Assembly: GCA_047967505.1 (NCBI GenBank)
Contig: CM106538.1
Source of the DNA: Dipteris shenzhenensis
Taxonomy: Eukaryota
Direction: 5' to 3' (one strand)
Length of the DNA: 64,000 nt
This document shows, one piece after another, positions 28,162-64,000 of the stretch. Each line of letters begins with the position of its first letter. Position 1 is the first letter of the stretch. Under the pieces are notes generated by a model. The model saw only the letters and a list, made by a program, of their open reading frames with translations, made no database searches and had not been told where the DNA came from. The position numbers were made by a program, and so were the translations under genes.

Positions 28162-29819
28162 GGATTATTTTGCATCATACTTTCAACATGTAAAATGAAA
28201 TCTCGCAAGCCTTTCACTTCATATACGTCAAGTTCTTTTATTTTTTTGCGAGAACAAATCCAATTTCCTTCAATGGAGTTATTCGTTGTAATAAAGCATA
28301 TGGATCACTCCATAAATTATCTCCATCCATTGAGTAGTGCTTCCATTGCATTGCTCAAGTATTTTCATGCATGCTCCTTGCATGCTAAACTAAAAGTAGT
28401 GTGGATTTATGGCCCCTACTAGTGCATCGTCTCCTGTGATGCTCTATGGATGCTCTTTAATCTACCATCCTTTCTAAGATAGCCACAAGTTCTAATTCTT
28501 CTATTCGAGAACCTTTAATTATTTCCCCAATTTGAGTTAACATATCATCAATAGTCTAGACATCCCTTGACTTCAACTCTCTAGAGGTAACACTAAATAG
28601 ATCTGGGAAGGTAGCTATATTCACAAAGAATATGTTTCATTTTAATTTGAAATTCATAATTATAGCACGTAACCACAAGTCTTGTTTTTATAAAATTGAC
28701 TTTAGCACATAGCATTTCGAATTTGGCACATAGCACTTTGCATTCAACACATAGCACTTTGCACTTTGCATTTAGCACATAACCACACATTTGTGTGGAG
28801 GGAGAGTTGGCACACCATACCATTATCGCCAAAACTATTGTTGCTATTACTTCGGTAGTGAAAGTGGCTCTAAAGAAGAACAAATGTCATATTTCTTCCC
28901 TCGTTTATATTTTACTGCAACCATAGGGATCGTTGCACAAGCAATTTTTGAAAAAACTATTGTTACTGTAGTGAAAATGGCTCCAATAACCAGTACGGTG
29001 GTTTAGAACTATGATAACTCCAATAACCAATGCGGTGGTTGAAAGAAAACTATACTAAAGTGCAATGTCTACATTTTCCTTAGCTTGCAACTAAAATAGC
29101 TCCAAGAATTTGTGCGGTGGTTGAGAAATTGTTGCACAATGCATAGTAAGAATAGAGGAAATATGCATGCCTAAGCATGAAAAGGATATTTTGTCCACAT
29201 AAAAATTTGCAAGCACAAGGGTATTACTCTCATTAATGCCTACACAGAGTAGCATATCCATAAGACACACACACACATTTCTAGAGGGAATTTTGGACTC
29301 AAAAAGGGCCTCTTGGATTAGTCCCTTAAGATTTGTGATTAGCAAACCAGCCAATGGGAATGCTTGGGCATTAAAAGAATGGAGGATTCCATATTGGCCT
29401 CTCATTGGTGGAGAGTCCTCCTTGGTCCCCACTAGGCTTCCACTTGCCTCTCTCTTGGCCCCCCACCTCTTAAGGCATTTACTCCCTCCTTTCACTTTTG
29501 GATGGTCCCCATACCCTCCTAGGCTCTCTTGGTAGGCCACCAAATCCGCGACTTTTTTTCCCCTCCAAAAAAGCAAAAATTTTCAAAAGTGTCCCTAGCA
29601 CCCCAAACTCCTCCCAGGAGTCTCCCCAAACTATCCCCATTGACCCCCACCTTTCTCTCAGCCTCTTCCTCCTCGAGTCCTCCTCTCTACCTCCTCTCAG
29701 CTTGCTCCCAACCTCTTCCTCCTCTCAACCTCCTCCCAGCCTCCTCCCAACCTCTTCCTCCTCTCAACCTCCTCTCAGCCTCCTCCTCTCAACCTCTTCC
29801 TCCTCCCAACCTCTTTATC

Positions 29820-30606: not shown

Positions 30607-31092
30607 TCTCCACCTCCACCTCCACCTCGCCTACTGCGAGCTTTGCCTTTTCCTTTTTCTGTGTGATGCAATCCTTGCAAAGATTTTCCACCCTATCTAG
30701 AATGTGGAAAGTCCTGAGTAGCATTGTGCCATGCGGGTCGTCATTGTGGGCTCTCCATTTGTGCCCTTTGTTGTTGAGCCAAGTGAATCCGCATTTTCCT
30801 GGCATCTTCCTGTCCTCTGGCCCGTTCTTCCAATCTATGTCTTTTGCACTCCTGTTCTTCTCGTCTGCTTTTTGGCTCTTGAAGTGCCTCAGGCTGACTC
30901 TGAGGATCGGATTGCTCCCCATGATCTTCTTCATCGTCATTTGTTTGCTCATTGGTTTCTATCCTCTCCTCCTCCTCCTCCTCCTCCTGCTTCCTCTTTC
31001 TTCTCTCTTTGATCATTGCATTGTATACATCAGGAGGGATTGGGAGCTTTGTTTTGGAATCAACTGGTCTTCCAGTTTGCTTTGTTCTTGCT
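30607..31092 (-). pseudogene. Histone H3 variant, copy 1: N-terminal tail only (ATG lost in a 20-bp deletion, histone fold deleted)
   Basis: ARTKQTGRPVDSK...EEQECKRH...GGKSLQG..GGG; direct repeat of ~59109-59592. Confidence 0.85.
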
Positions 31093-31612
31093 ATGGGAAA
31101 TGTGATGGTAGGAAGGAACGTACTAGTATAAGAGAGTATTGGTGGTACTGAGAAAATGAAGGTATTTGAATATATATAGGGGTATATTTATTTTGTGCAT
31201 CATTATTAGTTAGCCCCCCCCCCCCCTTCCCCCCCTCAACCCCTCCTACCCCCCCCCCCCTATTTGTCATAGTCCCCTCGAGGGTTAACCTCACAAAATT
31301 TTAGTGTACCACGTGCATTGTAAAGAAGGGAATTTATCAAAAAAATTACTTAGTTCATCAAAACATTGGGTTTTATCATTCAACTTTAGGAAAAAGTTAC
31401 TTAAAGAGGAGGGGTGTTTGTTTTGGGGGAAAAAACTTATTTAAGGGGTTTCTGAAATTCCCCTTGAACTCCCGTGAGGTCGCTCCCCCAACCTTTTCTC
31501 ATCGCCTGCCCTTGTTGGGTCGACAAGTACAAAATTTAACGCTTGTTTGAAAAAAAAAGAGCCAATTAATCAAATGTCCACAATAAATATTGAAGTACGA
31601 TTTTAATTAACA

Positions 31613-34462
31613 TCAAAGTACATTTGGTTTAGCGATCCAACGCTTTCCAACACGACTTCTAGTTGCTATCCAACTTCTATGTTTTTAGGAAGCTTGCAAA
31701 GATATCCATGAATGCCTTCTTTTACTCATTTGAGTTCGACGAACTGCTTGGGCTAACTCCGTTTGCAAAGATTTATTCCTTGCATAGGAGGACCAGACTA
31801 TATAATGATAGAACCACTCGAACATCTCATGAAGAGCATTACTTCCATTAATCCCCCCTCCATGTCATGTACTCTTGAAATAAGCACCTCGAGCTCTATA
31901 ATGAGACTTTTCCATCCCTTGGGCACACCAAGCATTCAAGGAACCATATTGGTGGCGAAGAAACCATGGACCATGAGCATAAAGAATGTGCTGCATACAT
32001 AGAAAAAACACATGAGGTAAACAAGAATAAATTGATTGCAATTATAATTTTGAAAATAGTAAACCAAACACACCATGTAGTGAGTAATGTGTGATTCACC
32101 CCATCCATCTACCATGGCTTCAATAAACTCTTTCATGATGACTTTATATCGTTGCACAACATCATCGTCTATGGAAGGCTTCCTCAAGATCTTTACCAGA
32201 TTATCCAATTATTTCCAAACACGTATTCTCAAGGTTCTGACATGAGGATCAACTTTCAAATTAGTGGTGCAATCACATAACTTTTTCCAATAATTCCAAT
32301 GCAAATTTAATCAATGTTTTCCATGATTGGACAAAAACCTTCGTGCCTTAGAGCCTCCCATGGACACTTTATTTGGAAGATTTCCTGATTTTCTTGACAA
32401 TTGTGCGTCTTTGATTAGCTTTACATTTCCCCCCATGTAGACCCATGCTCGAGTGTAAAGCTTCGACCCTTGCTATACATGATGCCGCTCTCTCCTCCAG
32501 TTTCATGTTCCATGCATATACAATGTGCAAGTAAAGCAATTTATCAATGAGCTGGATCTCCGCATCATGTAACACGTAGAAATGCACTCTTTCTAATGGA
32601 ATGTTTAAAATTGGATCCCAATTTTTATCGTTCTGATCTCTGTTGGGTGCAGCATCTTGATTGTAGCTCATTACTCCATTGCTCCAATACATCCGTTTGT
32701 TAGCCTCATCATCTGTGATGTCATTTATTACATCTTTAGCATTCCCAAAGTCTTTTCCTCTTTTCATTTGCTCTTTCCCTCTATGTATTCCTATGTTACT
32801 GCCTCAAGGTTGGTGTGAGTGCATACAATAAAGACACGAATATGTCGCATTTGCACTCAATTTCATTCCAAACATACACTTCAATGTCTTAAGATCTCTT
32901 GCCATGTGCCATTCAACTTTAAATGATCTGAACCCTTCAACTTGAAGCAACTCTCCTTTCATTTGCGCATCTATGTGCAAATGACACTTGGAATTGGGGA
33001 TCTATCAAATACCCATTTCAAGAATGAGTTTGTCTCTTTAGGAATTTCAAACGCAGCAAGTCACCAAATGTGCTTTTTTAATTGCACATTAAAATCTTCC
33101 CTAATTTCCTTATCTTTGGCATGTCTAAGGGCTTTATTCATCAAACTAATGCTAAACCTCTCCAACTTGTGGCCTTTTATAACATCACACTCATCCAATT
33201 TGATAACGAATACTAACTTTCCTTCACAATCTAAAAGATTAAAAGATTTACACAATTAGAAAATATTTCAATAAAAATTCTAGCTCTCTTAACAATATAA
33301 TTTTAACCTACCCGTGCTTTCATGTTGTAAAACTCCATCGTTGCAGCTTGGACCCGACGTACATCAAAAAAACATTATTATGCTCTGTGTACTCAAAGGT
33401 TCTTGGTCCTTGCTTTGCCCCTTTGGTAGTTGGTCCTCCTTTCTTTTTGCTATGTTGGACATTTGTCTTCTTTGTGCCTTCCAACGTCATGCTTTCTGAG
33501 ATGTGTATAAATCCACCCAACAAATCTTGAACAATAGAATTTGTTTCTTTCCTTGCATTTCTAACATATACTAGTCTTGGCAATAGAGGATTCTTAATGC
33601 CTTGACCTTGAAGTGCATTTACAAAGACATTATACATAGCTAAGTACCCTTGCTGACTAATGCCAGCAGCATCACATGCATGGACAACTTTCGATGGATC
33701 TACAAGATTCTCTAAATCAGTTGCAACCTATTGTAATATTGCATGTCGCAATGCACGCCGAAGAGGGTCCCTAAGAATAGAAATGAATTCTTTCTTCTTA
33801 ACTACACTCTTTACGGCACAAAGTTTGTCAGAGGAATTTCTTCCAATAACCTCCTCCATAAAATTTCTACAAAAATCATGATAACATTAGAAAAATAAAT
33901 GACTCATTTGTAAGTAATGCTTCATAATTACAAAATACTCCAAATATATTACATACCTTATAGCTTTCACCCTGCGTTTCCTTGCTCCACCACCATATGC
34001 CAAGCTTTCCATTGGTTGCACGGGCTTGATCCTATGCTTATAACCTAGAGGGGTTCTTTTTATCCTTTCTAATCTCCTAGTCAATGTAGCAAGCTCTTGT
34101 TGGATATACCAAGACTTTTTCAACAATTTGTTCTTCTCATTTATTATTCTTGTGATCGTCTTTTGTGATGTCTCTTTTGTAATTTTTGAGTCAACCAGTT
34201 TTTTTGTTCTTGGGTTAGTTGTTCTTGGAGGTTATGCATGGTATCTCTAAGTATCTTTGTCTCTCCTTCCATTCTCAACAAGTGAACCTTCGCAAAGTGT
34301 GCTTCAGCATTGGGATGGCGAATGCGTTTACAATATCCTACTAAGCCTTGAAGACCATCGCCTATGTATTGAATCAAACTCGTCACATTTTCAAACAAAG
34401 GTGGAGCACCTGTCAAAGGATCCATTGGATAGAGTCCACCAACACTTCATAAGTCGACATGC
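31613..34462 (-). pseudogene. Transib/Chapaev/RAG1-type DDE transposase, copy 1
   Basis: VFVIKLD; EWHMARDLK; YSCLYC; VLHD; ITHYM|HILYAH (H-x4-H, intron between); GSLNAWCAQGMEKSH. Three short introns; many TGA/TAG stops. Confidence 0.78.
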
Positions 34463-34481
34463 TTCATACATACATACATAC

Positions 34482-40664: not shown

Positions 40665-40691
40665 GAGGCCCTTTTTGAGTCCAAAATTCCC
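40665..40691 (-). repeat. Left 27-bp TIR of copy 2 of the BAH/H3/Transib-like element (flipped by the inversion)
   Basis: Identical to 63669-63695 and the reverse complement of 29286-29312. Confidence 0.8.
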
Positions 40692-41822
40692 TCTAGCAAT
40701 GTGTGTGTGTGTGTCTTATGGATATGCTACTCTGTGTAGGCATTAATGAGAGTAATACCCTTGTGCTTGCAAATTTTTGTGTGGATAAAATATCATTTTC
40801 ATGCTTAGGCATGCATATTTCCTCTATTCTTACTATGCATTGTGCAACAATTTCTCAACCACCGCACAAATTCTTGGAGCTATTTTAGTTGCAAGCTAAG
40901 GAAAATGCAGGCATTGCAATTTAGTATAGTTTTCTTGCAACCACCGCACTAATTATTGGAGATATCCTAGTTCTAAACCACCGCGCTAGTTAATATTGGA
41001 ACCATTTTTACTACAGTAACAATAGGTTTTTTTAACAATTTCTTGTGCAACGATCCCTATGGTTGCAGTAAAATATAAACGAGGGAAGACATATGCCATT
41101 TGTTCTTCTTTTAGAGCCACTTTCACTATCGAAGTAATAGCAACAATAGTTTTGGCGATAATGGTACGGTGTGCCAACTCTCCCTCCACACAAATGTGTG
41201 GTTATGTGCTAAATGCAAAGTGCAAAGTGCTATGTGTTGAATGCAAAGTGCTATTTGCCAAATTCGAAATGCTATGTGCTAAAGTCAATTTTATAAAAAC
41301 AAGACTTGTGGTTACATGCTATAATTATGAATTTCAAATTAAAATGAAACATATTCTTTGTGAATATAGCTACCTTCCCAGATCTATTTAGTGTTACCTC
41401 TAGAGAGTTGAAGTCAAGGGATGTCTAGACTATTGATGATATGTTAACTCAAATTGGGGAAACAATTAAAGGTTCTCAAATAGAAGAATTGGAACTTGTG
41501 GCTATCTTAGAAAGGATGGTAGATTAAAGAGCATCCATAGAGCATCACAGGAGACGATGCACTAGTAGGGGACATAAATCCACACTACTTTTAGTTTAGC
41601 ATGCAAGGAGCATGCATGAAAATAGTTGAGCAAAAGAATGGAAGCACTACTCAATGGATGGAGATAATTCATGGAGTGATCCATATGCTTTATTACAATG
41701 AATAACTCCATTAAAGGAAATTGGATTTGTTCTTGCAAAAAAATAGAAGAACTTGACGTATATGAAATGAAAGGCTTGCAAGCTTTCATTTTACATGTTG
41801 AAAGTATGATGCAAAATAATCC

Positions 41823-43794: not shown

Positions 43795-46700
43795 TTAGGA
43801 GGCAGTAGGGGGCAGGGGGGTGGGGCCAGGAAAGATAGCAAGGGGGATTTTAGCACAGTGGCCTTGGTCTCCATGGAAGACAATCTCTCCCAAGCAATAA
43901 TGATGGTGGCGAGGTTGGCGACCAAGTCCAGGTAGGGTTGCATTGGAACTATGGATATGTTGGTATTGTTGTGGTTGTTGCTGCTGTTGATGTTGCTGAT
44001 GGTGATGATGAACAGAGATGGTGAGGGTGAGGTTGATTGAGGCTCCCGACGATAATGTGAAGGAGGGCGGTGAGATAGTCACTACCAGCGGGGTTCGATT
44101 CTTGTAAAGACTAACTACCGTTGTATACTTCTCGGACATCGTAGCCACATTGGTGATCGTCCGTCTTACTTGCAGTGGACTATGAGGCAGAGCTACCACC
44201 GTGATGGATGGTAGATTCAAGTCTGTTGGTTTACTAGTGCCCGACTGGGAGTACGTTAGCCTTTCGCAGCTAACTCCAGTGACATTATGCACCTCCTCCC
44301 CAGACCTTACTCCGCATGCAAAAGTTATGTAATCCATGAACCCTGCAGAATCCCACTACTGTTAGAAAGATAACCCACTCCTTTCACCATTTTTTAAATT
44401 TTGATCAATCCTCCAAGTCACACACTTCCAACGTTTCCCCGAGTTTTCTGCATAGCTTGCAATGGTTAGATCCCCGTTAGATCTAGATCACGACTCTAAC
44501 TTCTAGCGTGTCAATATGGTGGTTTGCATTCGTAGCTTTCCGTAGGTAGCGAGGCTCCTAGAACTGAGTTTCACTGTACCTGCATCAAAGATCAGACCGG
44601 GATCCATGGCCTCCTTTGCATTCACGAATCCGGACCCGAAATCGAAGGGAGTTGCACGTTTCAAGCTCTCGTCGTTACGGATCATCCATCCCCTATTGTC
44701 CTTTGTGGTTGCAGTAGTTGACAGTGCGGAGGCAATGGCTGCAGGGCTCCACGTTGGGTGCCTTTGCTTGATCAGTGCTGCTACTCCAGCTATGTGGGGT
44801 GCAGCCATACTCGTACCAGATAGAGAAGCGAATCTGGCACCTGTGTGCAATGTGCATAATTCGTTACAATGCATAATCATCAGCAATTTATTCCATAATA
44901 AGTTACAATGCATAATCATTTGCCATGATCATATTGTTGTTGGCGACATGAATAGAAAGAGCGGTTGAATAATTTGTTGGAACGCTCCCATTGCATTCAA
45001 GTCATGAGTTTACCGAAGAATTCGTCGTGGTATTCGTCCTCCATTTCTGCACCTAGGCTATACGCAGCCCAGACGGAGAGACCTGGAGCTAAGATATTGG
45101 GTTTCAGCAAATCGATCGGCTCCTCCGTTGAAATGTTGGCAAAGCTTGGACCTCTTGATGAAAAGACTGTTACGAGGGGCGCTCTGGTTGCGAATTCGCC
45201 CTTTATGTTGCCTAAAATTCTCCCGATCGGATGTTTGACTGAGTTGTAGTAATCAGAAATGGCCTGCCAGAGATACATTTCAAGGCACTGATAAGTTATG
45301 TTGATGATTGAAATCGATTTGAATAGCATTACTTAGATAGAATTCATGGATTTGAATATGCAGCTTTTATTAACACAAATCCATGAATTCTCACCTGTGA
45401 ATCATCGCTTTTATAAACAACAACGGCTGGCGTTTCTACGATGAAGGTAAGCATGTTGCCTCGACTTGAATTGCTGATATCTAGAACAAATCCCACTGCA
45501 CCAAGGTCGTTCACAGTTTTCTCTACAGATAGTAACAGCGACGTATTCATCCGGTCGACGGACTGAGGGAAGACGCACAGGAGGATGCTTCCTTGGGTCA
45601 ACGTTTTGTCGTAAAACTCAGAATGCTGGCATGGAAAGCTTTGATTTGTGAAATTTGTTTTCAAAGCGTTCTTCGCTGCGATCAAAGGGTACATAATTCC
45701 TTCTGAAGTACCCGCTACACAAGGCATGGAAGACATGGGCTAGATGAGATAGAGAATCGCAACGTTAGCAGTCTTAGAACCGAGGATCTCACAGAGATGA
45801 TGAGGTAGGAAAGAAGGTCCAGACTCCACAAGACATGGATCAAATTGCAGTGTACAGAAGCTTAGCAATCCGGGAATCCTCGATGACGAAAGCACAATTA
45901 GTAATCAAAAGACCAGTAATTGATGGGTGAATGATAAGATCTTACATGATAAAGCTACTCCATTCACAGTCAGATTGTTCCCAAGCGCAATGCCCTTCGG
46001 ATACGTCCTATCTGTAGAGCACGCAGCTACCGTCATTACCCAAGGGGAATTAGATTGCATGCTACTCGGCCTGGGGCCTCTATTGCCAGCTGAATTTGCT
46101 GTGAACACTCCGGCTTTGGAAGCAAAGAGCATAGCTATGTCAAACGCGCTCAGGAATGTTGCTATGTTTTCGTCATCCAAGTCGAAGTTCAATGAGATGC
46201 TCAAGATGTTCACTCCGTCTCGAACTGCCTGCATCGAGAAGCGACGATCCATGGAAAGTCTTTTTTCAGCTTAAAAAATTGTGCAAATGTTGAGAAACTA
46301 CACCTGATCGATTGCTGCAACCACATCCGCTTCGTCTGCAACTGAATAAAGACATCGATAAACCGCCAGTCTGGAAAAATGCACGCATGCTTAGATATCA
46401 TCACGCGCACAAGCTACAACAATGTGGATAACACCAGCATCGAATGTTGAAGTGTGCTGCTCTCGATAACTAGGGCGCCAAATTCTTACCGTGCTCTGGG
46501 AGCCATACCACTGGCATTACCAAAAGTCACTCCATTGATAACAACTTGAATGCCTGAATTTCCAGCAGCAGTGGAAGCTGTATGTCTATTAAACCAGCAA
46601 CCTAAGTCAACGAGCTAGTTATGCCAACAGGAACTTCGAGAAGGACAAAGAGGTTTGCAGAAAATAACAGGCAATGCCATGCAAGAAACGTACTCGATCA

Positions 46701-48142
46701 ACACTCGATCTATCGACAACAACCTTTTTTAGGTGAAGGGTTAGGATGATGTAGATGTATGCGATGGGATACAGAGAGGAGCATATTTACGTTCCGTGCC
46801 CGTCTTGATCGAAAGGCGATGCGTAATCCACAGAAGCGTTGAAATTTCCTGAAGCAATGACAGCTTTGTTGAAGAAGCGAGCTGCAACGAGCTTGCCATT
46901 GCAAGATCCGGAAGGGAACATGGGTCCAACGTCGCAACCGCCATGGAAGTTTGGGAGGGTAGGATAAGGCTTGGATGGATCGTCCAGAAAGCTTGGATGG
47001 GTAGGGTCGATGCCTGTATCCACTAATCCAATCACCACTCCCTCTCCTGCATCTTTAATTCCTCCCACATCACGCCACGCACCCCCAGGCAAGCCCAAGA
47101 ACTCCGGAGTATGTGTAGTTTGACGCTTCGCGTGACGGCTACGTTGGATGTGCCTCACCCCCGTTGCTGATGTTAGTAATTCTATCTGCGGCGTCACGAC
47201 ACAATAATTTCTTTCACAATCAATCAGATCATCGATTTGATTTAAAGTTATGAACTTCTCAACATACGTTGATTACGTGTGATATATAACACAACACTTT
47301 TTGCACGTGAATTCCGTCACCCGTGTTTAGTTTTCAAAATGAAGCTCATAACAAATCCCTGAGTAGAAATATGCTTATATTCATATGAACATGACTTCCT
47401 ATGATTGCTACCACGCAATCTCTCGCATAATTTCAAATTTACCTACATGGAATCTCACAGCATTTGCATATAGTTTAATTATCAGGACACTTCTTGTTGA
47501 GCTCAAAACATATCCTCGGTTCTGAGTCTCGAAGCATGATTATCGGGAACGAGGCTATCTGCCGATTGATTCCTTATTTAATCTATCCGAACACAACTTG
47601 TTCCATCCAAATCCAGCATTAGTTCCAAGTATTAATTCTCACTTCATTCACACTTTCGATGTAATAGAAGAACGCCTATGTTATTGCGACTACCTTCTCA
47701 TGGCTGAGCTGAACAGCAAATCCATTCAGAATATGGGTGTAGGAGTAGAGCTTTAGGTAGCCTCCCGGATCCAAAGTCTGTTCCAGCAATGAATCGTGCA
47801 TCTCTGTCAGGTAAGCCGTATACCGTTGAGCTTCTGAGCTGTAGAAACAATAAGCAACATCGGAAACTGAGAGTTCAGCTGTTGACACCCTCCTGGTTTA
47901 TCGCAGGGATAAAGCATAACTTTGAAATTAGACACAGACCCTTGATATCAAGGAATAACGGGACTGGCTTACCTTAAGGCATGCACGTTGGTGCTCTCTG
48001 CAGCACCACTATATCCCAAGAATTTGGTCACGACGGGATCTTCTTCCATAAAAACGATGTAGATATCTGACCCAGATGCAGCGAGCGGCAGAAGCATCAG
48101 CTGCAAGAGTGTGAGCACAGCTGAGAGACGACCACGCGTCAT
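43795..48142 (-). CDS. Subtilisin-like serine protease (S8A, resembles plant SBT2 clade), 10 exons, apparently intact
   Basis: Approximate exons 48142-47973, 47838-47694, 47185-46791, 46585-46490, 46370-46304, 46228-45946, 45714-45396, 45264-45014, 44839-44580, 44342-43795 with GT-AG introns. Signal peptide; I9 propeptide (LYSYTHILNGF); TTHTPEFLGL; triad GLVDTG / GHGTHTASTAAG / GTSMAAPH; PA and Fn3-like domains. Confidence 0.93.
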
Positions 48143-50178: not shown

Positions 50179-53100
50179 AATCTTGGAAGCTTTACTTGCA
50201 ACATACCCCCGCCGTGAAAACGCCCTGCAACTCGCACAGACCTCAACGTGACCTTGCATAGACTTTGGTTTGCCATTGTCTTCTTTCAGGTAAGTTGTCT
50301 TCTATTCTTTGCTTACCTCACAAGCTAGCTTCTCTCTGTTTTGGTTTGTCATTGTCATCTTTCATTGATCGTCACCATGGCAACATGCAGCTCGCCATGG
50401 CTTACAAGAGAAGCAAACAGAGGTTGCAAGATAGAAAAGTTGAAAAGCTTGGTCAGGGCACAAGAAATAGAAGAACCCTTGCGGAGCAACAGTAGGAAGC
50501 AATTGTTTTAGATGTACGCATTCAATCGTTGCTATCATAGCGAAGAAAACAAGCTGTGATGTCACGATTGGTGGTAGCATTTTAGGAAGCAACATTCAAC
50601 CATTCAGGTAAATACCATTCTCGAATCTTCACAAGCTTTAGTCTACACCCTAAAGTTCATAGAGTGACAACCCTACCGACGCCTTGTATTTTCGTGCCAA
50701 AACATCACCACTATTGCAATCAATGCTTCCACTCTTCGTGCATCTCTCGAGAGTTTCTCCAAATAACAAGGACATTTGTAGAAAGCAGGTGGGATGCAAG
50801 ATGTTTGACGAGCACATCATACATATGCTTGATACAATGCAGGTCAGTGGTTGCCTAAACCATCCTGGTGGTTGCTTGTGATTGAGCTTTGGGATAGTTT
50901 ACTTGTTTCATTTCTTGATACAATGCAGGTCAGTGGGGGTGGTTGCCTCAGGCCGGTGGTTGTTTGTGATTGAGCTTTGGGATAGTTTACTAGGCTAGAC
51001 TGGACTTAATGTGATCATCCTAAACCAGCCTGGTGGTTGGAATATCATGCAACTGTGTGGCTAGTTCAGCTCAAACACCAGAACCAGGCTGGCTTGGACT
51101 TAATGTGATTGTCCTAAACCAGCTCGGTGGTTCGAACATCATGCAATCGTGGTTGGGTCAGCTCAAACACCAATTATATGATTGCCCTAAAGCAACCCGG
51201 TGGTTGGAATATCATGCAACCGTGTGGCTAGTTTAGCTCAAACACCAAAACCAGGATGGCTTGGACTTAATGTGATTGTCCTACACCAGCTTGGTGGTTG
51301 GAACATCATGCAATCGTGATTGGGTCAGCTCAAACACCACTTAAGGCTAGAGGAGGTAGGCACGAGCAATGAAATGCATTTTTGTTAGTTTAGGATTACC
51401 TGCAACCCCCCCAAAATATAACTTTTAGTAAATCCCAAACAACCACCGCAATTGTTTAAGTAAATCACAATCAATAAATCCCAAACAAGGAAAAGTATAA
51501 ATCCCAAATAGTATACTAATCCCAAACAACCATTGAGTTTGTTTTAGTGACAAAGATTGTGCATAAGGGACCATCTAATTCACACGCTCAGATTGGCATT
51601 GAGTTGAAATCAGACTATAATACCAATGACTTTGCATCTAGTTCACAAGCTTAGATTAGCATCCAGTCGATTTATCAGGTTGTAATAGCAATAGTTTAGA
51701 ATGAGAACTAGCATTAAGCTGAGATAAACTGTAAGAACATATCACACTATTAGAATTACCATCTAATTGCACATCATGAGCAACCATCTAATCGCACATC
51801 ATGGCTAGACGATGATGTATATGACCACCTATGCTAGACTGGGCTATCAGCAAAGCTGGGTATATGTGCCACCTCTCGTTCCCCCTCATCCCATTGAATT
51901 ATTATGATCTTGGCTCCGATGACCGATAAATTCTCCCACGGCAACCATCTAATCGCTTGTCATGGCTAGACGATGATGTAAATGACCGCCTAGGCTAAGG
52001 CTAGGCTACCAGTAAGCTGGGTGCATGTGCCACCACTCCTCCCTCCTCTTCCTATTGAATTATCATGATCTGGCACTGATGACCAATAAATTATAGCATG
52101 GCAACCATCTAATCGCACGTCATGGCCAGACGATGATGTAGATGATTGCTTACGCTAAGCTGGGCTACCAGAAAAATCCAGCGGGTGGATTGTGTGTCTT
52201 AGCAGTACCAATAAGCACCCAGAGTCACACAAATGACACAAGAAACAAAGGGAAGAAGAGTGGGAGGGCGGCAATTCTATAGCTATATAAAGGCCTTAAG
52301 AGCAGAGAAACAATTCATGCAACCCAAGAAAATTTCTCTCGTACCCCCTTCCATGCTCTCTCCAAGCCCCCTTATACCCCTATGATGAATCTTCTGCTGC
52401 AATCTCGATGCCCCTTCATAATGCTGCCCAAGTCATGGGATCCATTGTTTACATTGGTTCTCCATCCTGCAACACTTTACAAGCCATAGCCATGACCAAG
52501 GGAGTTGTAGGATGGGGAGCCAAGGGAAACGGGTCATCATTGTTCCGTCAAGCACTGGCAAAGGACTCAACTTGGTGATGAGACTCTCATAATTGAGCAT
52601 AACCTTCGATGCTGGGGAAGGAGAACTCAACCTGGTGATAAGCTATAACACACTGAGAGCATGTGTTAGTGTGTTGGAGCTCACCACCAGCTTGAGTTCC
52701 CTATCCACTATCGAATGTTGTGCTAGATTGAACTCACTGCCAAGTTGAGTTCCCTCTTGAAAGAAGCAATTCCTTGATAATCCTGCGAGTGCCTTGAAAG
52801 AAGTTGCAAAGAAGAAAGCAATTCCTTGATAACCAACCATGTTGCAATATGGGGAGCCAAGGGAAACACATCGTCATTGTTCTGTCAGGCATTGGGAGAG
52901 AACTCAACTTGCAGATGAACCTCTCATAATTGCACACAACCTTTGGCATTGGGGAAGGAACTCAACTAGGTTATCAACTCTAACACACTGAGAGCATGCA
53001 TCACTGTGCTGGAGCTCACCACCATATTGAGTTCCCTGTCCACTATCAAATGTTGTGCTCGAGTGAGCTCACCTCCAAGATGAGTTGCCTCTTCTAGTGC

Positions 53101-53514
53101 CTTGAAAGAAGTTGCTATGAAAAAGGCTATTTCAATTACGAGGTGCTCATATTGTCCCATGCATACGAGGAGTTCCAGGTCAAAATTGTAAGAAAGTCCT
53201 ACCTACGATAGCACTACGAGGTGCTCATATTATCCCATGCATACAAAACACCAGGTCAAAAGTGTAAGAAAGTGCTAACAAGAACAAAAAGTGACACCCA
53301 GTCCTGCCACAGTGGTGGTGTTGACAAGTGCTAAAAGTGTTTAAAGAAGTGTCACAAAGATTGTTAAATGTTTGCTTCGGATGTAATTTATTTTGTTTCA
53401 ATTTTGATGTAATACTATTATCGCAAAAACTATTGGATGTAATTTCTTTTGTTTCAATTTCAATGTAGTATCTTATCACCAAAACTATTGTTGCTGTTAC
53501 TTCGGTAGTGAAAG
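50179..53514. repeat. Repeat module A, copy 2 (inverted; carries the Sola2 empty site)
   Basis: Reverse complement of 12515-13252 + 22948-25636. Confidence 0.88.
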
Positions 53515-55160
53515 GATACACGTGGGATTAAGAGGGAGCTCACATCTCCTCATACTCCAGAGCAAAATCCAGTTGCAGAAAAGATGAATCGTACCATTCA
53601 AGAAAGGTTGCAATGCATGCTTTCCAATGCAAGTCTTTCTGGTGGTTTTTGGGCTGAGGCAATGAAGACTGCAGTGCATGTGATCAATAGATCACCTAGT
53701 AAGAGTTTGGATGGTGGTATTCCTGAAGAGGCATGGAGTGGCAAGAAGCCCTCTTACTCTCATTTCTGTATATTTGGGTGTGAGGCATATGCACATGTGC
53801 CAAAAAGAGCTTCGAAAGAAGCTAGATCCTAAGTCTAGGAAATGCATCTTTCTGGGTTATGGTGAAAGTGGAGAGAGGGGCTATCGTCTCTGGGATCCAT
53901 AAGCAAAGAAGATCATGCGCAGCCATGATGTAGTCTTCAATGAGAAGAAGATGCATAAGGCACCCATGAGGGATGTGGAAATGAGGAGAATCACTTTCCA
54001 GGATGTGAATCCACCTGCATATGTTGATAGACAACAAGCTGTCCATGCACCAAATGTGCAAGAAATGGTACCACCAAGTACTCCCATAGGTATAATCAAG
54101 GGTAGATGATGGATCATCTATTGGTGGAAATGATGAGCCAAATGTGGCTGATATGCAAGTGGGACAACAAGCTGAAATGCTCTTGAGAAGATCATCTAGA
54201 GTGTCTAGACCGCCTGATAAGTTTGTTCCAGGGGTAGACTATGTGATGCTTACTAATTGCGGGGAGCCTTCTTTCTACAGAGAGGCTACGATGCGCGAGA
54301 ATCAATGCAAGTTGGAGTATGTTATGCAATCAGAGATGAGTTCACTTATGAAGAATAAGACTTGGGACTTGGTTTCTTTGCCACATGGAAAGAAAGCGTT
54401 GCCATGTAAATGGGTCTACAAAATGAAGGTCACATGTGATGATGTGCCTAGGTACAAGGCCCGTTTGGTCGCTAAAGGGTTCAAGCAAGAGAAGGGTGTG
54501 GACTTTGATGAGATATTCTCTCAAGTTGTGAAGATGACCACACTTAGATGCATGCTTGGACTAGTGGCATCAGAGGATATGGAGCTTATGCAGATGGATA
54601 TCAAGACAGTTTTCTTGCATGGGGATTTGCATGAGAAAATTTACATGGTGCAGTCGGAAGGCTTTGAAGAAAAGGGCAAAGAGCATTTAGTTTGCAAGTG
54701 GAAGAAGAGTCTCTATGGTCTTAAGCAAGCGCCTAGAGAATGGTATCAGAAGTTTGATGCTTTCATTCGGTCCCAGGGTTTTAGAAGGAGTGAAATTGAT
54801 CACTGCCTCTACACTAAAAGGGCTAAGGATAATAGCCTGATAATCTTGGCACTATATGTGGATGATATGCTATTGGCTAGCAAGAATACTTATGAGCTAG
54901 ATGCATTAAAGGCCAAGTTGCATGAGGCCTTTGATATGAAGGATTTGGGATTTGCAGGTCATATTCTTGGTATGCGCATCACGCGTGATCGGAGTAGGAA
55001 ACTCCTTTGGCTTTCACAAAAAGAGTATGTTACAAAAGTATTGCAGCATTTCAATATGGAGGGGGGGAAGGCAGTGAGTACTCCATTGCCTCCATATGTG
55101 AAACTGAGTCATACAGATAGTCCCAAATGAGATGAGGAGAGGGCCATGATGGCCAACGTG
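53515..55160 (+). mobile_element. Middle part of the second copia element (integrase C-terminal half + RT N-terminal part), 5'-truncated
   Basis: AEKMNRTIQE, FWAEAMKTA, YKARLVAKGF, QMDIKTVFLHG, LYVDDML; ends abruptly at DEERAMMANV. Confidence 0.93.
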
Positions 55161-56783
55161 AGGCATACCATGACTTTGTCACTTCTACTTGTCATTCAAG
55201 TAGAGAGGCAAAGTTGTATGACATTTTTGATCATCAGATAGATGTCATCGGCACAGTACACAAGCATCTAGACCTCTTTAGAGATGTGGTAGATTATGCA
55301 AGAGAGAAAATCAAGCCTTATCTGATCTGGCTAGACATAGATAGAGTACAGTGGGTTCCTATGAATCTCCTAATTAAGTATCGTTGGGCTGATAGCACTT
55401 TCAAGTTTAGGTTGCAAAGAATTTGCAAATCCCTTAGTCCAAAAAGTTTTAGAAGGATTTCCAAGGATGAAGAGTTGGATCAGCAACCGGGTCCTATAGG
55501 AACTGTTTTTGTATCCGTGGAAATAGCCTATTGTGTAATTCTTTTGGAAATGGAGGACACAGATGCACCTCCATTCATCAATGTAGAGCCACCTCTTCTT
55601 CTAGCAGCAACAGGGCAAGGTGTGGACATTGAGGAGAATCTTGATGTGGTTGCGAAAGCCGCCCGCTATTGCTCTAGATTTGTCTAGTGCATCTTTGGAC
55701 AAGGGAAAGCACACAGCAGAAATAGAGTAGAAATAGAGTTGGTTGTGGTTCCTGAAGTAGGTGGAAATCATCCTCCACAAGACAGCTAGAAGAGTAAGAG
55801 GAGGAAGGAGAGCAAAAGGAGGAAAAAGGTATGATGGATGAGGTTTTGATGCAAACCCTTCCATATATTTTGATTGAAAACAAATAATATTTATTATTGA
55901 TTGACATTCAATATATTAAAAATTTGAGAGAAGATGAAGTACTGGGGACACTCCCCGCTTGGGAGAGTAGTAGTAACTTAGGTCACCCAGAAGAGGGGTT
56001 GGATAGGTGCACAGATTTGGCACCTGCAAACCCTTTGGAGCATCCGATCTTAATTGTGTGGGAGGAAATGCATGACTCTACAAATGAAGCAGTTATAGAG
56101 ATGGAGTTCCATCACGTCCAAGAAAGATTGGAGGTAAAGAGGGCACAGAAACACTAGAGACTTGAGAATACTACAGAGGCCTCATCATTGGCACCACCTC
56201 CAGCAATTGATGAGAGCAAAAGCTCCATCGATATAACTCGGCCGGGAATGGATGAACAAGATGCTTCCCACATTGTGAGTTCATGATATTTTGTCAATAT
56301 GAATGAATTTATGTTCTTAGTTTGGCATTAAAACGATTACTGATGTTATCTCAATTTTTAGGACGTCATCGAAGTTGATAAGTTTGTGACACGTAAAGGG
56401 GGTCAAGGTGACAGCATCGGTGTGGATTCAGCACTAGGACACTACATGGGAATGTTCGAGTCCCATAGCCTAGTGTGTTCCATACTTCGTTCTCCCCTTA
56501 TGGAAAGGAGGAGATGATAAAGTGTAGGGCACTTTCAAAACTAGTCTCCCTTGTGCCTTTACCCCCTTCTGTGCACAAGTGTATTTTGGTGAGGTGGGAC
56601 TTGGCACTATCTACTTTTGGGGAGAAACTAGTAGGAAGAATCATGGCAGTTGCTGCTATGGGTGCTTCAGCAGGTGTTTATGATGTTGGGCAGCTTGTAG
56701 AATCTTTCAATAAACCCACTGTTTTGTCAACTCAGAGGAGAGCAGCAATAGTAGCTAAAGCTAAGCAAGCAAATATTTTGTAA
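55159..56783 (+). pseudogene. Multi-exon gene of unknown function inside the H3-carrying element
   Basis: Frame is open from the breakpoint (EAYHDFVTSTCH...LYDIFDHQ...), continues past TAG stops to KSKRRKESKRRKK|GT; further exon-like frames to 56783 (donor GTGAGT ~56275, acceptor ~56361). Confidence 0.5.
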
Positions 56784-57784: not shown

Positions 57785-58044
57785 GCACTTTTTTTTGTTT
57801 TTTTAAATGTATTTGTTTCTTGTGTGTGTACTGGGTGTGTGTGTAAGTGATGGGGGATGAATCCCCCAATTAAAAAAAACAAGAAAAGCCCCCAAGAGGC
57901 CGTGGTGCGCGCAGGTGTGACTTTGGGTCAGACGAGGTCCCCGTCTAGCCCAAATTCTCGCTTGTCTGCACCAGGGCCTCTCGAGGGCTTTTTTTTGTTT
58001 TGTTTTTTTGGCATGTCTTTCTTTTGGGGCATATCTTACCCCCA

Positions 58045-58078
<34 letters not shown>

Positions 58079-58424
58079 CCATATCACACGCAAATAAACA
58101 AATACAAAAAAAAACAAAAAAAAGCCCCTGAGAGGCCCTGGTGCACATAAGCGTAACTTTGGGCCAGACGGGGATCTCGTCTGGCCCAAAGTCGTGCCTG
58201 TGTGCACCAAGGCCTCTCGAGGCTTTTTTTTGTTTTTTTTTGGGGGGATGCATTCCCCATCACTCACACACACCCGTCACACACACAAGAAAAAAATACA
58301 TAAAAAATTAAAAAAAAACCCCCGAGGGGCCCTGGTGCACACAGCCGTCTGGCCCAAAGTCGCACTAGGGACGCTCAGGGGCTTTTTTTGTTTTTGAGGG
58401 GATGCATCCCCCATCACATACTAG
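57785..58424 (+). mobile_element. Fold-back repeat ending in a Helitron-like 3' terminus; 5' boundary unresolved
   Basis: Nested inverted repeats; palindrome GGGGATGCATCCCC at 58398-58411, then CTAG (58421-58424) followed by T. Confidence 0.6.
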
Positions 58425-58720: not shown

Positions 58721-59595
58721 TTATGGCCTAAGTTGTGGGTCTTCTTTGATCCGCCTTGCCACCAGTTGCATGTCTTTTACCATGATCGTAACCCTCTTGG
58801 CATGGATTGCACACAAGTTTGTGTCCTCAAGAAGCGTTATGATCGCCACTTCTGCTACTTCTTGTATGGTGGCTAGTGCGATTGATTGAATACGATAGTT
58901 GTCCTTGTAGGACTGCATGATCTCTTTCACCAATCAAGCGAACGGAGCTCTTGGTATTAGAAGGTTCACACTACTTTGATACTTTCTTATCTCTCGAAGC
59001 GTCTTCCTTCTAGGCTTTCTACGGTGTCTTCTAGGGACTCCACCTCCTCCTCCACCTCCACCTCCACCTCCACCTCCATCTCAACTCCACCTCCACCTCC
59101 ACCTCCACCTCCACCTCCGCCTTCACCTCGCCTACTGTGAGATTTGCATTTTCCTTTTTCTATGCGATGCAATCCTCGCAAAGATTTTCCACCCTATCTA
59201 GAATGTGGAAAGTCTTGACTACCATTGTGCCATGCGGGTCGTCATTGTGGGCTCTCCATTTGTGCCCTTTGTTGTTGAGCCAATTGAATCCGCATTTTCC
59301 TAGCACCTTCTTGTCCTTTGGTCCATTCTTCCAATCTGTGTCTTTTGCACTCCTATTCTTCTGGTCTGCTTTTTGGCTCTTGAGGTGCCTCAGGCTGACT
59401 CTGAGGATTGGATTGCTCCCCATGATCTTCTTCATCATCATCTATTTGCTCGTTGATTTCTATCCTCTCCTCCTCCTCCTCCTCCTCCTGCCTCCTCTTT
59501 CTTCTCTCTTCGATCATTACATTGTATACATCGGGAGGGATTGGGAGCTTTGTTTTGGAATCAACTGGTCTTCCAGTTTGCTTTGTTCTTGCCAT
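58721..59595 (-). pseudogene. Intronless long-tailed histone H3 variant (~290 aa reconstructed), copy 2
   Basis: MARTKQTGRP start; acidic, basic and poly-Gly tail; fold [98 protein letters not shown]. Four stops (TAG/TGA) and one frameshift in the GGA/GGT tract. Confidence 0.93.
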
Positions 59596-60142
59596 GTTGG
59601 TGATGGTGGGGCTATGGGAAATGTGACGGTATGAAGGAATGTACTAGTATGAGAGAGTATTGGTGGTACTGAGAAAATGAAGGTATTTGCATATATATAG
59701 GGGTATATTTATTTTGTGCATCATTATTAGTTAGCCCCCCCCCCCCTTCCCCCTTTACCCCCCCTCAACCCCTCCTCCCCCCCCCCCCCCTATTTGTCAT
59801 AGTCCCCTCGAGGTTTAACCTCACAAAATTTTAGTGTACCATGTGCATTGTAAGGAAGGGATATTTATCAAAAAAATTACTTAGTTCATCAAAACATTGG
59901 GTTTTTTCATTCAACTTTAGGAAAAATTTACTTAAAGAGGAGGGGTGTTTGTTTTGGGGGAAAAAACTTATTTAAGGGGTTTTTGAAATTCCCCTTGAAC
60001 TCCCGTGATGTCGCTCCCCCAACCTTTTCTCATCGCCTGCCCTTGTTGGGTCCACAAGTACAAAATTTAACGCTTAAAAAAAAAAAAAGAGCCGATTAAT
60101 CAAATGTCCACAAGAAATATTGAAGTGCGATTTTAATTAACA

Positions 60143-63100
60143 TCAAAGTACATTTGGTTTAGCGATCCAATGCTTTCCAACATGACTTCTGGTTGCTATC
60201 TAACTTCTATGCTTTTAGGAAGCTTTCGAAGATATCCATGAATGCCTTCTTTTACTCATTTGAGTTCGATGAACTGCTTGGGCTAACTCCGTTTGCAAAG
60301 ATTTATTCCTTGCATAGGAGGACCCGACTATACAATGATAGAACCACTCGAACATCTCATAAAGAGCATTACTTTCATTAATCCCCCCTCCATGTCATGT
60401 ACTCTTGAAATAAGCACCTCAAGCTCTATAATGAGGCTTTTCCATCCCTTGGACATGCCAAGCATTCAAGGAACCATATTGGTGGTGAAGAAACCATGGA
60501 CCATGAGCATAAAGAATGTGCTACATACATAGAAAAAAGACATGAGGTAAACAAGAATAAATTAATTGCAATTGTAATTTTGAAAATAGTAAAACCAAAC
60601 ACACCATGTAGTGAGTAATGTGTGATTCACCCTATCCATCTACCATGGCTTCAATAAACTCTTTCACGATGACTTTATATCGTCACACAACATCATCATC
60701 TATGGAAGGCTTCCTCAAGATCTTTACCAGATTATCCATTTATTTCCAAACACTTATTCTCAAGGTTCTGACATGAGGATCAACTTTCAAATTAGTGGTG
60801 CAATCACATAACTTTTTCCAATAATTCCAATGCAGATTTAATCGATGTTTTCCATGATTGGACAAAAACCTTCATGCCTTAGAGCCTCCCATGGACACTT
60901 CATTTGGAAGATTTCCTGATTTTCTAGACAATTGTGCGTCTTTGATTAGCTTTACATTCCCCCCATGTAGACCCATGCTCGAGAGTAAAGCTTCGACCCT
61001 TGCTATACATGATGCCGCTCTCTCCTCCGATTTCATGTTCCATGCATATACAATGTGCAAGTAAATCAATTTATCAATGAGCCGGATCTCCGCATCATGT
61101 AACACATAGGAATGCACTCTTTGTAATGGAATTTTTAAAATTGGATCCCAATTTTTATCGTTCTCATCTCTATTGGGTGTAGCATCCTGATTGTAGCTCA
61201 TTACTCCATTGCTCCAATACATTCGTTTGTTAGCTTCATCATCTGTGATGTCATTTATTACATTTTTAGCATTCCCAAAGTCTTTTCCTTTTTTCATTTG
61301 CTCTTTCCCTCTATGTATTCCTATGTTACTGCCTCAAGGTTGGTGTGAGTGCATACAATAAAGACACGAATATGTCACATTTGCACTCAATTTCATTCCA
61401 AACATACACTTCAATGTCTTAAGATCTCTTGCCATGTGCCATTCAACTTTAAATGATTTGAACTCTTTAACTTGAAGCAACTCTCCTTTCATTTGCGCAT
61501 CTATGACACTCGGAATTGGAGATCTGTCAAATACCCATTTTAAGAATGAGTTTGTCTCTTTGGGAATTTCAAACACAGCAAGTCACCAAATGTGATTTTC
61601 TAATTGCACACTAAAATCTTCCCTAATTTCCTTATCTTTGGCATGTCCGAAGGCTTTATTCATCAAAGTAATGCTAACCCTCTCCAACTTGTGGCCTTTT
61701 ACAACCTCACACTTATCCAATTTGATAACGAATACTAACTTTCCTTCACAATCTGAAAGATTAAAAGATTTACATGATTAGAAAATATTTCAATAAAAAT
61801 TCTAGCTCTCTAAACAATATAATTTTAGCCTACCTGTGCTTTCATGTTGTAAAACTCCACTGTTGTAGCTTGGACCCTACGTACATCCAAAAAAACATTA
61901 TTATGCTTTGTATACTTAAAGGTTCTTGGTCCTTGCTTTGCCCCTTTGGTAGTTGGTCCTCCTATCTTTTTGCTATGTTGGACATTTGTCTTCTTTGCAC
62001 CTTCCAACATCATGCTTTCTGAGATGTGTATAAATCCACCCAACAAATCTAGTACAATAGAATTTGTTTCTTTCCTTGCATTTCTAACATATACTGGTTT
62101 TGGCAATAGAGGATTCTTAATGCCTTGACCTTGAAGTGCATTTACAAAGACATTATACATAGCTAAGTACCCTTGCCGACTAATGCCAGTAGCATCACAT
62201 GCATGGATAACTTTCGATGGATCTACAAGATTCTCTAAATTAGTTGCAACCTATTGTAATATTGCATGTCGCAATGCATGCGGACGAGGGTCCCTAAGAA
62301 TCGAAATGAATTCTTTCTTCTTAACTACACTCTTTACAGCACAAAGTTTGTCAGAGGAATTTCTTCCAATAACCTCTTCCATAAAATTTCTGTAGAAATC
62401 ATGATAACATTAGAAAAATAAATGACTCATTTGTAAGTAATGCTTCATAATTAAAAATAGTCCAAATATACATACCTTGTAGCTTTCACCCTGTGTTTCC
62501 TTGCTCTACCACCATTTCCTTGCTCCACCACCATATGCCAAGCTCTCCATTGGTTGCATGGGCTTGATCCTATGCTTGTAACCTAGAGGGGTTCTTTTTA
62601 TCCTTTCTAATCTCCTAGTCAATGTAGCAAGCTCTTGTTGGATATACCAAGCCTTTTTCAACAGTTTGTTCTTCTCATTTATTAATCTTGTGATTGTCTC
62701 TTGTAACCTCTCTTTTGTAATTTTTGAGTCAGCAAGTTTTTTTGGTTCTTGGGTGAGTTGTTCTTGGAGGTTATGCACGATATCTCTAAGTATCTTTGTC
62801 TCTCCTTCCATTCTCAACAAGTGAACCTTTGCAAAGTGTGCTTCAGCATTGGAATGGCCGATGCATTAACAATATCCTACTAAGCCTTGAAGACCATCGC
62901 CTATGTATTGAATCAAACTCGTCACATTTTCAAACAAAGGTGGAGCACTTGTCAAAGGATCCATTGGATAGAGTCCACCAACACTTCATAAGTCGACATG
63001 CTTTATTCCTTGTTGTCATAATTGATCTAGTGTATCTTTGCCGACAACCTTGTGACCATAACATTAACGAGTTGTGGCATACTTTGGTGTAACTTCGATG

Positions 63101-63150
63101 TGCAAGGTGCTTTTTTGTGGCTCGTTGGTGCGATCTTCCAATGGAGCCAT
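60143..63150 (-). pseudogene. Transib/Chapaev/RAG1-type DDE transposase, copy 2 (full length, decayed)
   Basis: Probable start MAPLEDRTNEPQK at 63150; same D/D/CxxC/LH/HxxxxH/E motifs as copy 1; ends WIAKPNVL* at 60143. Confidence 0.78.
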
Positions 63151-63668: not shown

Positions 63669-63695
63669 GAGGCCCTTTTTGAGTCCAAAATTCCC
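63669..63695 (+). repeat. Right 27-bp TIR of the BAH/H3/Transib-like element
   Basis: GAGGCCCTTTTTGAGTCCAAAATTCCC; weaker inverted similarity extends inward (63400-63668 vs 29313-29600). Confidence 0.8.
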
Positions 63696-64000
63696 TAATG
63701 AGCACACTTATACATATGTAGAGTATTCATGCACAATGCATGGTAAGAATGTGGAAATATGGATGTCAAACCGTGCAAATGCTATGTGATCCACATCTCA
63801 AAATTTGAAATCACAAATATCTTATTCTCATTAAGGCCTATGCAAATTATCATACCCATCGGATACATGCACATATGCTAGAAGCACATCGATGCATATT
63901 TTTAACACTCATGCATAATGCATGAATAGAATTATGGAAACATCATCAATCTACATCAAGATTTGAGAGAAAAATCATATTTCTCTCATTAAGGCATATT
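63696..64000 (+). repeat. Diverged ~180-bp tandem unit X that flanks the element on both sides
   Basis: GCACAATGCAT..TAAGAAT..GGAAATATG..TCCACAT..CTCATTAA.GCCTA at 63731-63880 and again from ~63910; same orientation as 29134-29285. Confidence 0.6.

Follow-up and report, generated by a model that had tools for sequence, protein, structure and literature searches.

Decayed Genes with a Predicted RAG1 Core and a Linked Histone H3 Variant in a Land Plant: Probable Relics of a Multi-Gene Transposon

Introduction

RAG1 is the enzyme behind the assembly of antibody and T-cell-receptor genes, and its ancestry has been traced via Transib and RAG-like transposons. A canonical Transib has a single gene, ends of the form CAC..., and 5-bp duplications. 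With these systems we compare here a gene, called gene 1, that is present as two decayed copies in 64,000 nucleotides of DNA from Dipteris shenzhenensis (contig CM106538.1 of assembly GCA_047967505.1; "the window" denotes this whole stretch). Gene 1 is predicted to encode a protein with the core fold of RAG1, and it is accompanied by remnants of a gene for a histone H3 variant and of a further gene, gene 2. The reading that we consider fairly probable is that these are parts of a DNA transposon with several genes, from an undescribed and deep lineage related to RAG1 and Transib; its mobility is inferred.

In the excerpted text of Kapitonov and Koonin (2015; PMC4411706), the Transib superfamily is made up of Transib, TransibSU, Chapaev, and Chapaev3, and Chapaev proteins carry at their N-terminus a Chapa zinc finger, with or without a RING. 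Excerpts of Tao et al. (2022; PMC9435367) report 39 Transib-like plant proteins, with Juglans, Capsicum, Corrigiola, Hordeum, and Silene named, as well as a RAG-like element in the alga Aureococcus; the total given in the excerpted text of a bioRxiv survey (10.1101/2021.09.26.461848) is 35 Transib transposases. RAG1 and Transib relatives outside animals and fungi are therefore already in print, and the statement that Transib is mainly known from animals and fungi, made in an earlier reading of this DNA from its letters alone (the sequence-only reading), needs to be qualified. The plant proteins of Tao et al., as the excerpts present them, differ from the gene 1 family in having been found by ordinary similarity to Transib, which the latter lacks; an overlap between the two is for this reason unlikely.

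Gene 1 in the Window

Copy 2 of gene 1 (60143..63150, minus strand), as delimited by tblastn, translations, and motif coordinates, extends from an ATG at 63150-63148 to a TGA stop at 60145-60143, both read directly, and covers residues 9-889 of P0013, an intact relative of 898 amino acids (tblastn). Copy 1 (31634..34467, minus strand) is truncated at its 5' side and shifted in frame, and by tblastn covers residues 43-889 of the same protein. Both are pseudogenes: Copy 2 has at least 12 in-frame stops and a 19-nt indel, many of the stops being TGA where relatives have W or R, and in copy 1 the frame is shifted by five or more indels and the gene breaks off at 34467, beside a (GA)n run. Ten open reading frame (ORF) pieces of gene 1 from the window matched no Pfam family above cut-off.

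The sequence-only reading, which had read its motifs from copy 1 (31634-34467), listed a series of them in the order of the RAG1 core, and the whole set is found in that order on the minus strand of both copies. In copy 2 the motifs lie at 61715-61726 (IKLD), 61418-61432 (ARDLK), 61355-61366 (CLYC), 61094-61105 (VLHD), 60605-60619 (ITHYM), 60503-60520 (HILYAH), and 60437-60451 (QGMEK); the corresponding positions in copy 1 are 33193-33204, 32888-32902, 32825-32836, 32564-32575, 32074-32088, 31973-31990, and 31907-31921. Only the contiguity of "ITHYMHILYAH" has to be given up: Both halves are present in each copy, separated by a GT..AG intron of 84 nt in copy 2 (60521..60604, minus strand) and of 83 nt in copy 1 (31991..32073, minus strand). 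The position of this intron is conserved, as all nine genomic pieces of the C-terminal exon, from other loci and the window, start at the same point, and it accounts for the "ITHYMV" with which most gene-caller proteins of the family terminate. A second intron probably separates ...FYNMKAQ from LSDCEGK..., at about 61760..61833 on the minus strand of copy 2 (approximate limits, from tblastn and translations); the tblastn alignments change frame there (61843/61753) and at the same place in copy 1.

The match to these motifs is beyond chance. A read-through of the D..D..CxxC..LH stretch, P0001, used as a database query, matched 17 unnamed proteins at E 1e-51 to 1e-75 with 37-46% identity, none of them with a Pfam family. 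Two of these relatives are full length and intronless, P0013 and P0016 (900 amino acids).

Predicted Structure of the Gene 1 Protein

The AlphaFold2 model of P0013, built from a 117-row alignment, has a pLDDT of 79.1, with most of the core above 90. When it was compared with the PDB by Foldseek, all 49 matches at E<=1e-3 were to RAG1, the lancelet ProtoRAG protein BbRAGL, or HzTransib; the best was RAG1 6dbv_A (E 4e-11), HzTransib appeared at E 2e-5, and the first protein of another family was the P element transposase at E 0.04. The VIA-align scores were Z 20.4 for RAG1 6xny_A (rmsd 4.3, 444 residues aligned), 19.0 for BbRAGL (450 residues), and 18.6 for HzTransib 6pqx (401 of 480 residues), followed by the P element (Z 10.4, 314 residues), ISCth4 (Z 8.9, 249 residues), Hermes (Z 8.4, 276 residues), and retroviral integrases (Z ~7, 130-160 residues). 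A second model, that of the core of a family member 65% identical (L002, pLDDT 88.1), was aligned, with no use of Foldseek, against 48,161 representative chains, and gave Z values of 18.8 and 18.5 for RAG1, 18.1 for BbRAGL, 13.8 for HzTransib (apo crystal), and 10.9 for the P element, with all else below 8.

In the structural alignments, residues 259-847 of the P0013 model correspond to RAG1 476-1008, and residues 1-477 of the L002 model to RAG1 533-1008. The likeness to the RAG1 core (4wwx, 6xny, 6dbv) and BbRAGL (6b40) thus covers RAG1 476-1008 at Z 18-20, with 397-456 residues aligned and a sequence identity to RAG1 of 13-16%. This range of RAG1 presumably comprises the dimerisation/DNA-binding, pre-RNase H, RNase H, ZnC2, ZnH2, and C-terminal modules, that is, all except the nonamer-binding domain, and the models predict that the flanking modules of the core (dimerisation/DNA-binding, pre-RNase H, and C-terminal) are present in the gene 1 protein. 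Two of the 50 VIA-align rows listed extend the alignment further, to model residue 187 or 206 (RAG1 408 or 432), toward the nonamer-binding region; the model helices there are preceded by a "GGG.(W/Y)(K/R)(K/R)R(I/V)" motif. The Transib transposase HzTransib (6pqn, 6pqx, 6pqr, 6pqy), a cut-and-paste DDE enzyme, has the same architecture, whereas the gene 1 protein is about twice as long.

In the P0013 model, D411 lies on the first long strand, D508 ends the strand 497-507, and E785 opens the helix 782-799, and the three residues are conserved in alignment A3 in 7/7, 9/9, and 24/25 sequences, respectively. Candidate zinc ligands are C528/C531, about 20 residues after D508, and H761/H766, which precede E785 and are conserved in 21/24 and 21/25 sequences. 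The resulting order, D ... D-x19-CxxC ... LH ... HxxxxH-x18-E, is that of RAG1, and the structural alignment runs through RAG1 722-961, the region of its zinc module. Judging from the order, the secondary structure, and the aligned ranges, D411, D508, and E785 would be the equivalents of the RAG1 catalytic residues D600, D708, and E962. An RNase H-fold domain with a D, D, E triad is therefore predicted, into which a zinc module with putative metal ligands, CxxC after the second D and HxxxxH before the E, appears to be inserted. The window copies retain IKLD, ARDLK, and QGMEK, and both have CLYC and H-ILYA-H.

At the sequence level, the only recurrent Pfam signal in the family is RAG1 itself (PF12940), below threshold in 3/25 and 4/116 members of two sets (best E 0.0032 in the set scans). 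The P0100 match (E 0.0038) reaches 15.8 bits where the cut-off is 25; it lies at the HxxxxH...E motif and corresponds to positions 553-593 of the 653 in the profile. In the ESM Atlas, the three clusters nearest to core residues 360-860 are RAG1, with scores of 0.95-0.96 and 203 of 256 features shared with the first. The kinship with RAG1 and Transib that the sequence-only reading had drawn from the motifs is consequently upheld by the predicted structure, by the protein-language-model neighbours, and by the recurrent match to PF12940. The structural comparison with RAG1 and Transib that it had proposed placed RAG1, BbRAGL, and HzTransib on top and not another superfamily, and in the models the acidic residues sit as an RNase H-fold triad should by order and secondary structure.

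The Gene 1 Family

How large is this family, and how does it differ from RAG1 outside the core? A phmmer search with P0013 against 1.84 billion representatives returned 641 proteins at E<=1e-3, of which 255 reach 1e-10 or better and 49 reach 1e-30 or better; among the 150 matches listed, most are far shorter than the 898-residue query and hence fragment-like. A cluster look-up for family names found nothing beyond one "hypothetical protein". An ESM Atlas cluster of 67 members, with a "hypothetical protein" of 778 amino acids, looks like the family itself, its commonest phylum being Streptophyta (phylum known for two members). Unlike RAG1, the gene 1 family is found in plants and microbial eukaryotes. 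A metagenome scan returned 24 loci, ten of them from a single metagenome assembly, and in a quick maximum-likelihood tree of 31 rows, for which a careful search is unfinished, the family divides into many deep paralogous clades. The dN/dS values between loci, 0.07-0.24, suggest that outside the window the family is under purifying selection. A distant subgroup (P0131, P0132, P0144, and P0217) has kept D, D, and E, lost the CxxC and HxxxxH ligands, and bears acidic C-terminal tails.

In place of the RING and zinc-finger regions of RAG1, the N-terminus has a conserved "DLW..G.IYP.DPL" motif and a long coiled coil (residues 94-158). Residues 1-258 are predicted to be helical or coiled-coil and contain few cysteines, and no Chapa zinc-finger domain, with or without a RING, was recognised in them.

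Companion Genes

Directly downstream of copy 2 and on the same (minus) strand lies a pseudogene of a histone H3 variant (58724..59595; Pfam Histone, E 6.9e-18), which begins with MARTKQTGRP..., continues with an acidic tail, a poly-Gly run, and ...LLIPRAPFA, and has an in-frame stop (58934-58936) and a histone fold. It is 45% identical to ORFs for H3 variants that follow gene 1, again on the same strand, at two other loci: The one in L002 (1675-2229; Pfam Histone, E 7.3e-34) is intact, and the one in L001 (2129-2707; E 5.6e-26) has one in-frame stop. At a third locus, L023, gene 1 breaks off near residue 632 and, owing to a deletion, continues directly into the alpha-N region of H3 (1404-1496, same strand). 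Copy 1 is followed by a remnant of the N-terminal tail (30855..31139, minus strand), 80% identical in amino acids to the tail of copy 2, the histone fold being missing. A long acidic/Gly-rich tail and an "LLIP.APF" motif characterise the variant, and the window, L001, L002, and L023 all have "P.APF" where the canonical H3 of the PDB alignment has "RKLPF".

From its histone fold and H3-type sequence, the companion gene appears to be a member of the histone H3 family. Its best sequence matches in the PDB are a CENP-A chimera and Cnp1 (E 5e-28), and the variant cannot be assigned to CENP-A because canonical H3 scores closely behind (about 1e-26). The idea that the window gene is the CENH3 of the host was set aside, because the gene has decayed to a pseudogene, the duplication that includes gene 1 also took in its 5' half, and its homologues follow gene 1 in unrelated loci. 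A third ORF follows the H3 variant on the same strand in L001 (3059-3238) and L002 (2587-2856); the two are 41-45% identical, begin in the manner of an H3 tail ("MVR.K.TP.R..N.Y..LLG"), and run off the contigs before their end.

Gene 2 is a conserved two-exon ORF of about 550 amino acids lying tail-to-tail just downstream of gene 1 in six loci (L005, L012, L013, L015, L017, and L024), with 25-46% identity between loci and an intron after "DDEN.KV" in all three loci read (L013, L012, and L005). In the window a decayed remnant of it (55855..56738, plus strand) is convergent with copy 2, 3.4 kb from the stop of the latter; tblastn matches to both exons (L013, L012, L005) are collinear, the last exon reaching E 2e-6 to 4e-6. 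This last exon has 28 unnamed homologues in the database, one of which is recorded on contigs matching in longest size and number (5586 nt, 3 contigs) those of P0010, a gene 1 protein that in the tree is identical to the L005 ORF. Searches for gene 2 found no Pfam family, Kelch and PHD included, no profile match in the PDB, no usable match in the ESM Atlas, and no longer homologues. A tail-to-tail partner gene recalls the position of RAG2 with respect to RAG1, as described in excerpts of PMC7204232, but gene 2 does not look RAG2-like by sequence, that is, like a Kelch propeller with or without a PHD, and RAG1/RAG2 has no histone H3 variant gene attached.

Short palindrome arrays lie just upstream of gene 2 in L005 (5009-5257, 37-38 nt) and L013 (5051-5291, 22-nt units in both orientations). 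Between the gene 2 remnant and the H3 pseudogene of the window, at 57788-58421, a (CA)n core is surrounded by a cluster of inverted and direct repeats about 200 bp long (57789-58006 and 58317-58106, for instance, are 83% identical); this cluster may be a hairpin-forming insertion or a miniature inverted-repeat transposable element.

On the family tree the H3 variant occurs in two of the starred clades and gene 2 in two, and the clade of the window (support 96) has both. This is most simply explained if enzyme, H3 variant, and gene 2 formed a block before these clades diverged; two or three of its genes are preserved together across clades at 35-45% protein identity. Literature searches, in part loosely framed and in part directed at histones, found no description of a DNA transposon with its own histone H3, nor of the gene 1 family. 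What is new here is the linkage of the H3 variant, and that of gene 2, to a RAG1-fold gene.

Element Ends and Rival Explanations

The two copies of gene 1 belong to a duplicated segment, 59109..63006 and 30608-34467 in the same orientation, which is 93.6% identical over 3912 columns (blastn), or 94.1% identical at aligned bases with 18 indel events (MAFFT), and contains most of gene 1 and about 1 kb of the sequence that follows, into which the 5' part of the H3-variant gene falls. Two separate transposition events were considered for these copies and judged unlikely. The GGG...CCC termini that the sequence-only reading had placed at 60143 and 63150 are not supported: Since these positions are those of the TGA stop and the ATG, the span is a coding one and not that of an element. 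A CCC (GGG on the plus strand) does occur just upstream of the ATG, no GGG is seen at the stop codon, and the duplicated segment fits neither of the proposed termini. A short repeat occurs three times in the window, at 63669-63882, just beyond the 5' side of gene 1, at 29133-29312, and at 40665-40846 (28 nt exact, about 150 nt at 75%).

Gene 1 would encode a DDE nuclease or transposase with dimerisation/DNA-binding and pre-RNase H modules, an RNase H fold carrying D, D, and E with an inserted CxxC + HxxxxH zinc module, and a C-terminal helical domain. The gene would travel with its companions, the H3 variant just downstream on the same strand and gene 2 of about 550 amino acids tail-to-tail. 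By analogy with RAG and Transib, the intact enzyme would nick the ends of the element and release it via a hairpin intermediate, and the copies of the window would have been silenced and then have decayed. This proposal of a multi-gene transposon draws on the two decayed copies within 64 kb, the hundreds of family matches (most of those listed being short), the many deep clades, the ten of 24 loci that come from one assembly (a metagenome), the deletion derivative in L023, and the conserved multi-gene block. A number of observations weigh against it. Both ends of the duplicated segment are at microsatellites within genes, one in gene 1 and the other in the H3-variant gene, and segmental duplication, not transposition, is therefore the probable origin of the two copies. 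Terminal inverted repeats flanking the gene were not found in the window, and around five intact loci on short contigs (L005, L012, L013, L016, and L017) the search for inverted repeats gave nothing convincing. Target-site duplications, which the sequence-only reading had proposed to measure in young copies, and empty sites were likewise not found in the window or the five loci, nor were CACWATG/RSS-type ends with 5-bp duplications or CACTA-type ends with 2-3-bp duplications, although the ends may lie outside the short contigs; in view of these negative results the mobility of the transposon has to be presumed. The homology of L006 and L007 breaks off 41 nt after the stop, but this candidate end was dropped, as splice-like signals lie next to it. 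Outside coding sequence the loci show no similarity, and the strong purifying selection would fit a host gene as well as a transposon, just as the conserved intron positions would. Finally, the structures are predictions, the sequence evidence for RAG1 kinship falls below every curated threshold, and HMMER searches with a single protein and two family profiles found neither RAG1 nor HzTransib among PDB sequences even at E<=10, a result that also agrees with the earlier suggestion of a distinct lineage.

Could gene 1 then be a host gene? Some of the same observations (no element ends found, introns at conserved positions across clades, dN/dS of 0.07-0.24, similarity limited to coding sequence, and a window duplication that looks segmental) would follow if an old RAG1/Transib-like transposase had been domesticated into a family with a chromatin-related function together with the neighbouring H3 variant, the window holding two duplicated pseudogenes. 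We consider this unlikely, in view of the many deep paralogous clades, the ten of 24 loci in one assembly (even if this is a metagenome), the 150 listed matches that are mostly much shorter than the query, the L023 derivative joining gene 1 to the H3 variant, the retention of the catalytic D, D, E and the zinc ligands, the block of two or three genes preserved across clades at such low protein identity, and the decay of the window copies, in which many TGA stops take the place of a W or R of the relatives. A transposase of the CACTA/Mirage/Chapaev (CMC) group would resemble RAG1 in the searches too, as no CMC or Chapaev structure has been solved and RAG1 could come on top for this reason alone; moreover, the CxxC...H(x3-4)H signature is, as the sequence-only reading noted, common to CMC and Transib, Chapaev is placed inside the Transib superfamily as a distant branch (PMC4411706, excerpted text), so that the border is fuzzy, and two-gene organisation is common in CACTA elements. 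The CMC group also shares with the gene 1 family the CxxC...HxxxxH motif, multi-gene elements, and, in the case of CACTA, an occurrence in plants. Membership of CMC instead of the Transib/RAG1 branch is nonetheless distinctly improbable. No CMC family of Pfam (Transposase_21, DUF4218, and the like) was found at E<=1 in 12 window pieces, 17 + 12 proteins, and a 25-member set, nor among the 25 families shown for a 116-member set, whereas RAG1 recurred, and this bears out the earlier remark that the protein is not an ordinary TnpD of plant CACTA elements. In addition, the nearest Atlas clusters are RAG1, with no CACTA cluster among those listed, the structural match goes beyond the RNase H fold to span all the RAG1 core modules of 476-1008, and the helical or coiled-coil residues 1-258 lack the cysteine-rich N-terminus of Chapa type. 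A further alternative, that convergence or an artefact of structure prediction lies behind the likeness to RAG1, the protein being an unrelated nuclease or no enzyme, might be argued from the 13-16% identity, the lack of a significant sequence match to RAG1, and the predicted nature of the models. We hold it to be very improbable indeed, because two independent models of members 65% identical agree, the first having been compared by Foldseek and the second with an exhaustive aligner, the next family scores far lower (Z ~10, against 18-20), motif order and spacing match RAG1, D/D/E and the zinc ligands are conserved, and the protein-language-model neighbours point the same way.

Other Features of the Window

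The remainder of the window contains Ty1/copia pieces at 2047-5267 (minus strand) and 54096-55130 (plus strand), with RVT_2 (E 2e-77) and integrase-like ORFs, the second of which abuts the expected start of gene 2. A multi-exon subtilase gene (43795-47272, minus strand; Peptidase_S8, fn3_6) has its C-terminal exon duplicated nearly identically on the opposite strand at 25485-26150 (plus strand). Large inverted duplications of 84-94% identity, inside which there are tandem repeats of about 80-170 bp, connect 50179-53514 with 22938-25636 and 8835-13245 and are probably another repeat family. At 18667-20295 (minus strand) there are two long ORFs rich in Cys, His, and Trp (306 and 166 amino acids) without a Pfam family, which may be a gene of another mobile element. 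A search of sequencing runs listed no RNA run and four DNA runs, the latter with about 0.09 of the sampled words. The subtilase with fn3_6, the RVT_2 of Ty1/copia type, and the prevalence of Streptophyta in the family-like Atlas cluster are consistent with the land-plant host that had been deduced from the letters.

Conclusions

In evolutionary terms, the models support the view that the gene 1 family is a new and very divergent lineage of the RAG1/Transib kind with unexpected companion genes. If so, a full RAG1 core architecture that is invisible to profiles occurs in plants, which widens the family tree of RAG1, and the gene 1 family becomes an outgroup with which to ask whether the zinc module, the partner gene, the C-terminal tail, and other features are ancestral. 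For genome annotation, such genes currently pass as "hypothetical proteins" without domains. DNA transposons are not usually linked to a histone H3 variant, as is repeatedly the case here; the linkage, if functional, would offer a testable case of a mobile element that brings its own chromatin protein.

A bolder version of this proposal, which we put forward tentatively and regard as unlikely, is that of a deep, eukaryote-wide lineage of RAG1-fold recombinases with its own H3 variant, shared by plants and microbial eukaryotes and separate from canonical Transib and RAG-like transposons, in which the histone and gene 2 function in transposition, for instance by marking or choosing chromatin. 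RAG2, the partner of RAG1, reads H3K4me3. Were the histone-carrying lineage real, it would connect a RAG1-type enzyme with histone H3 in a second, independent way.

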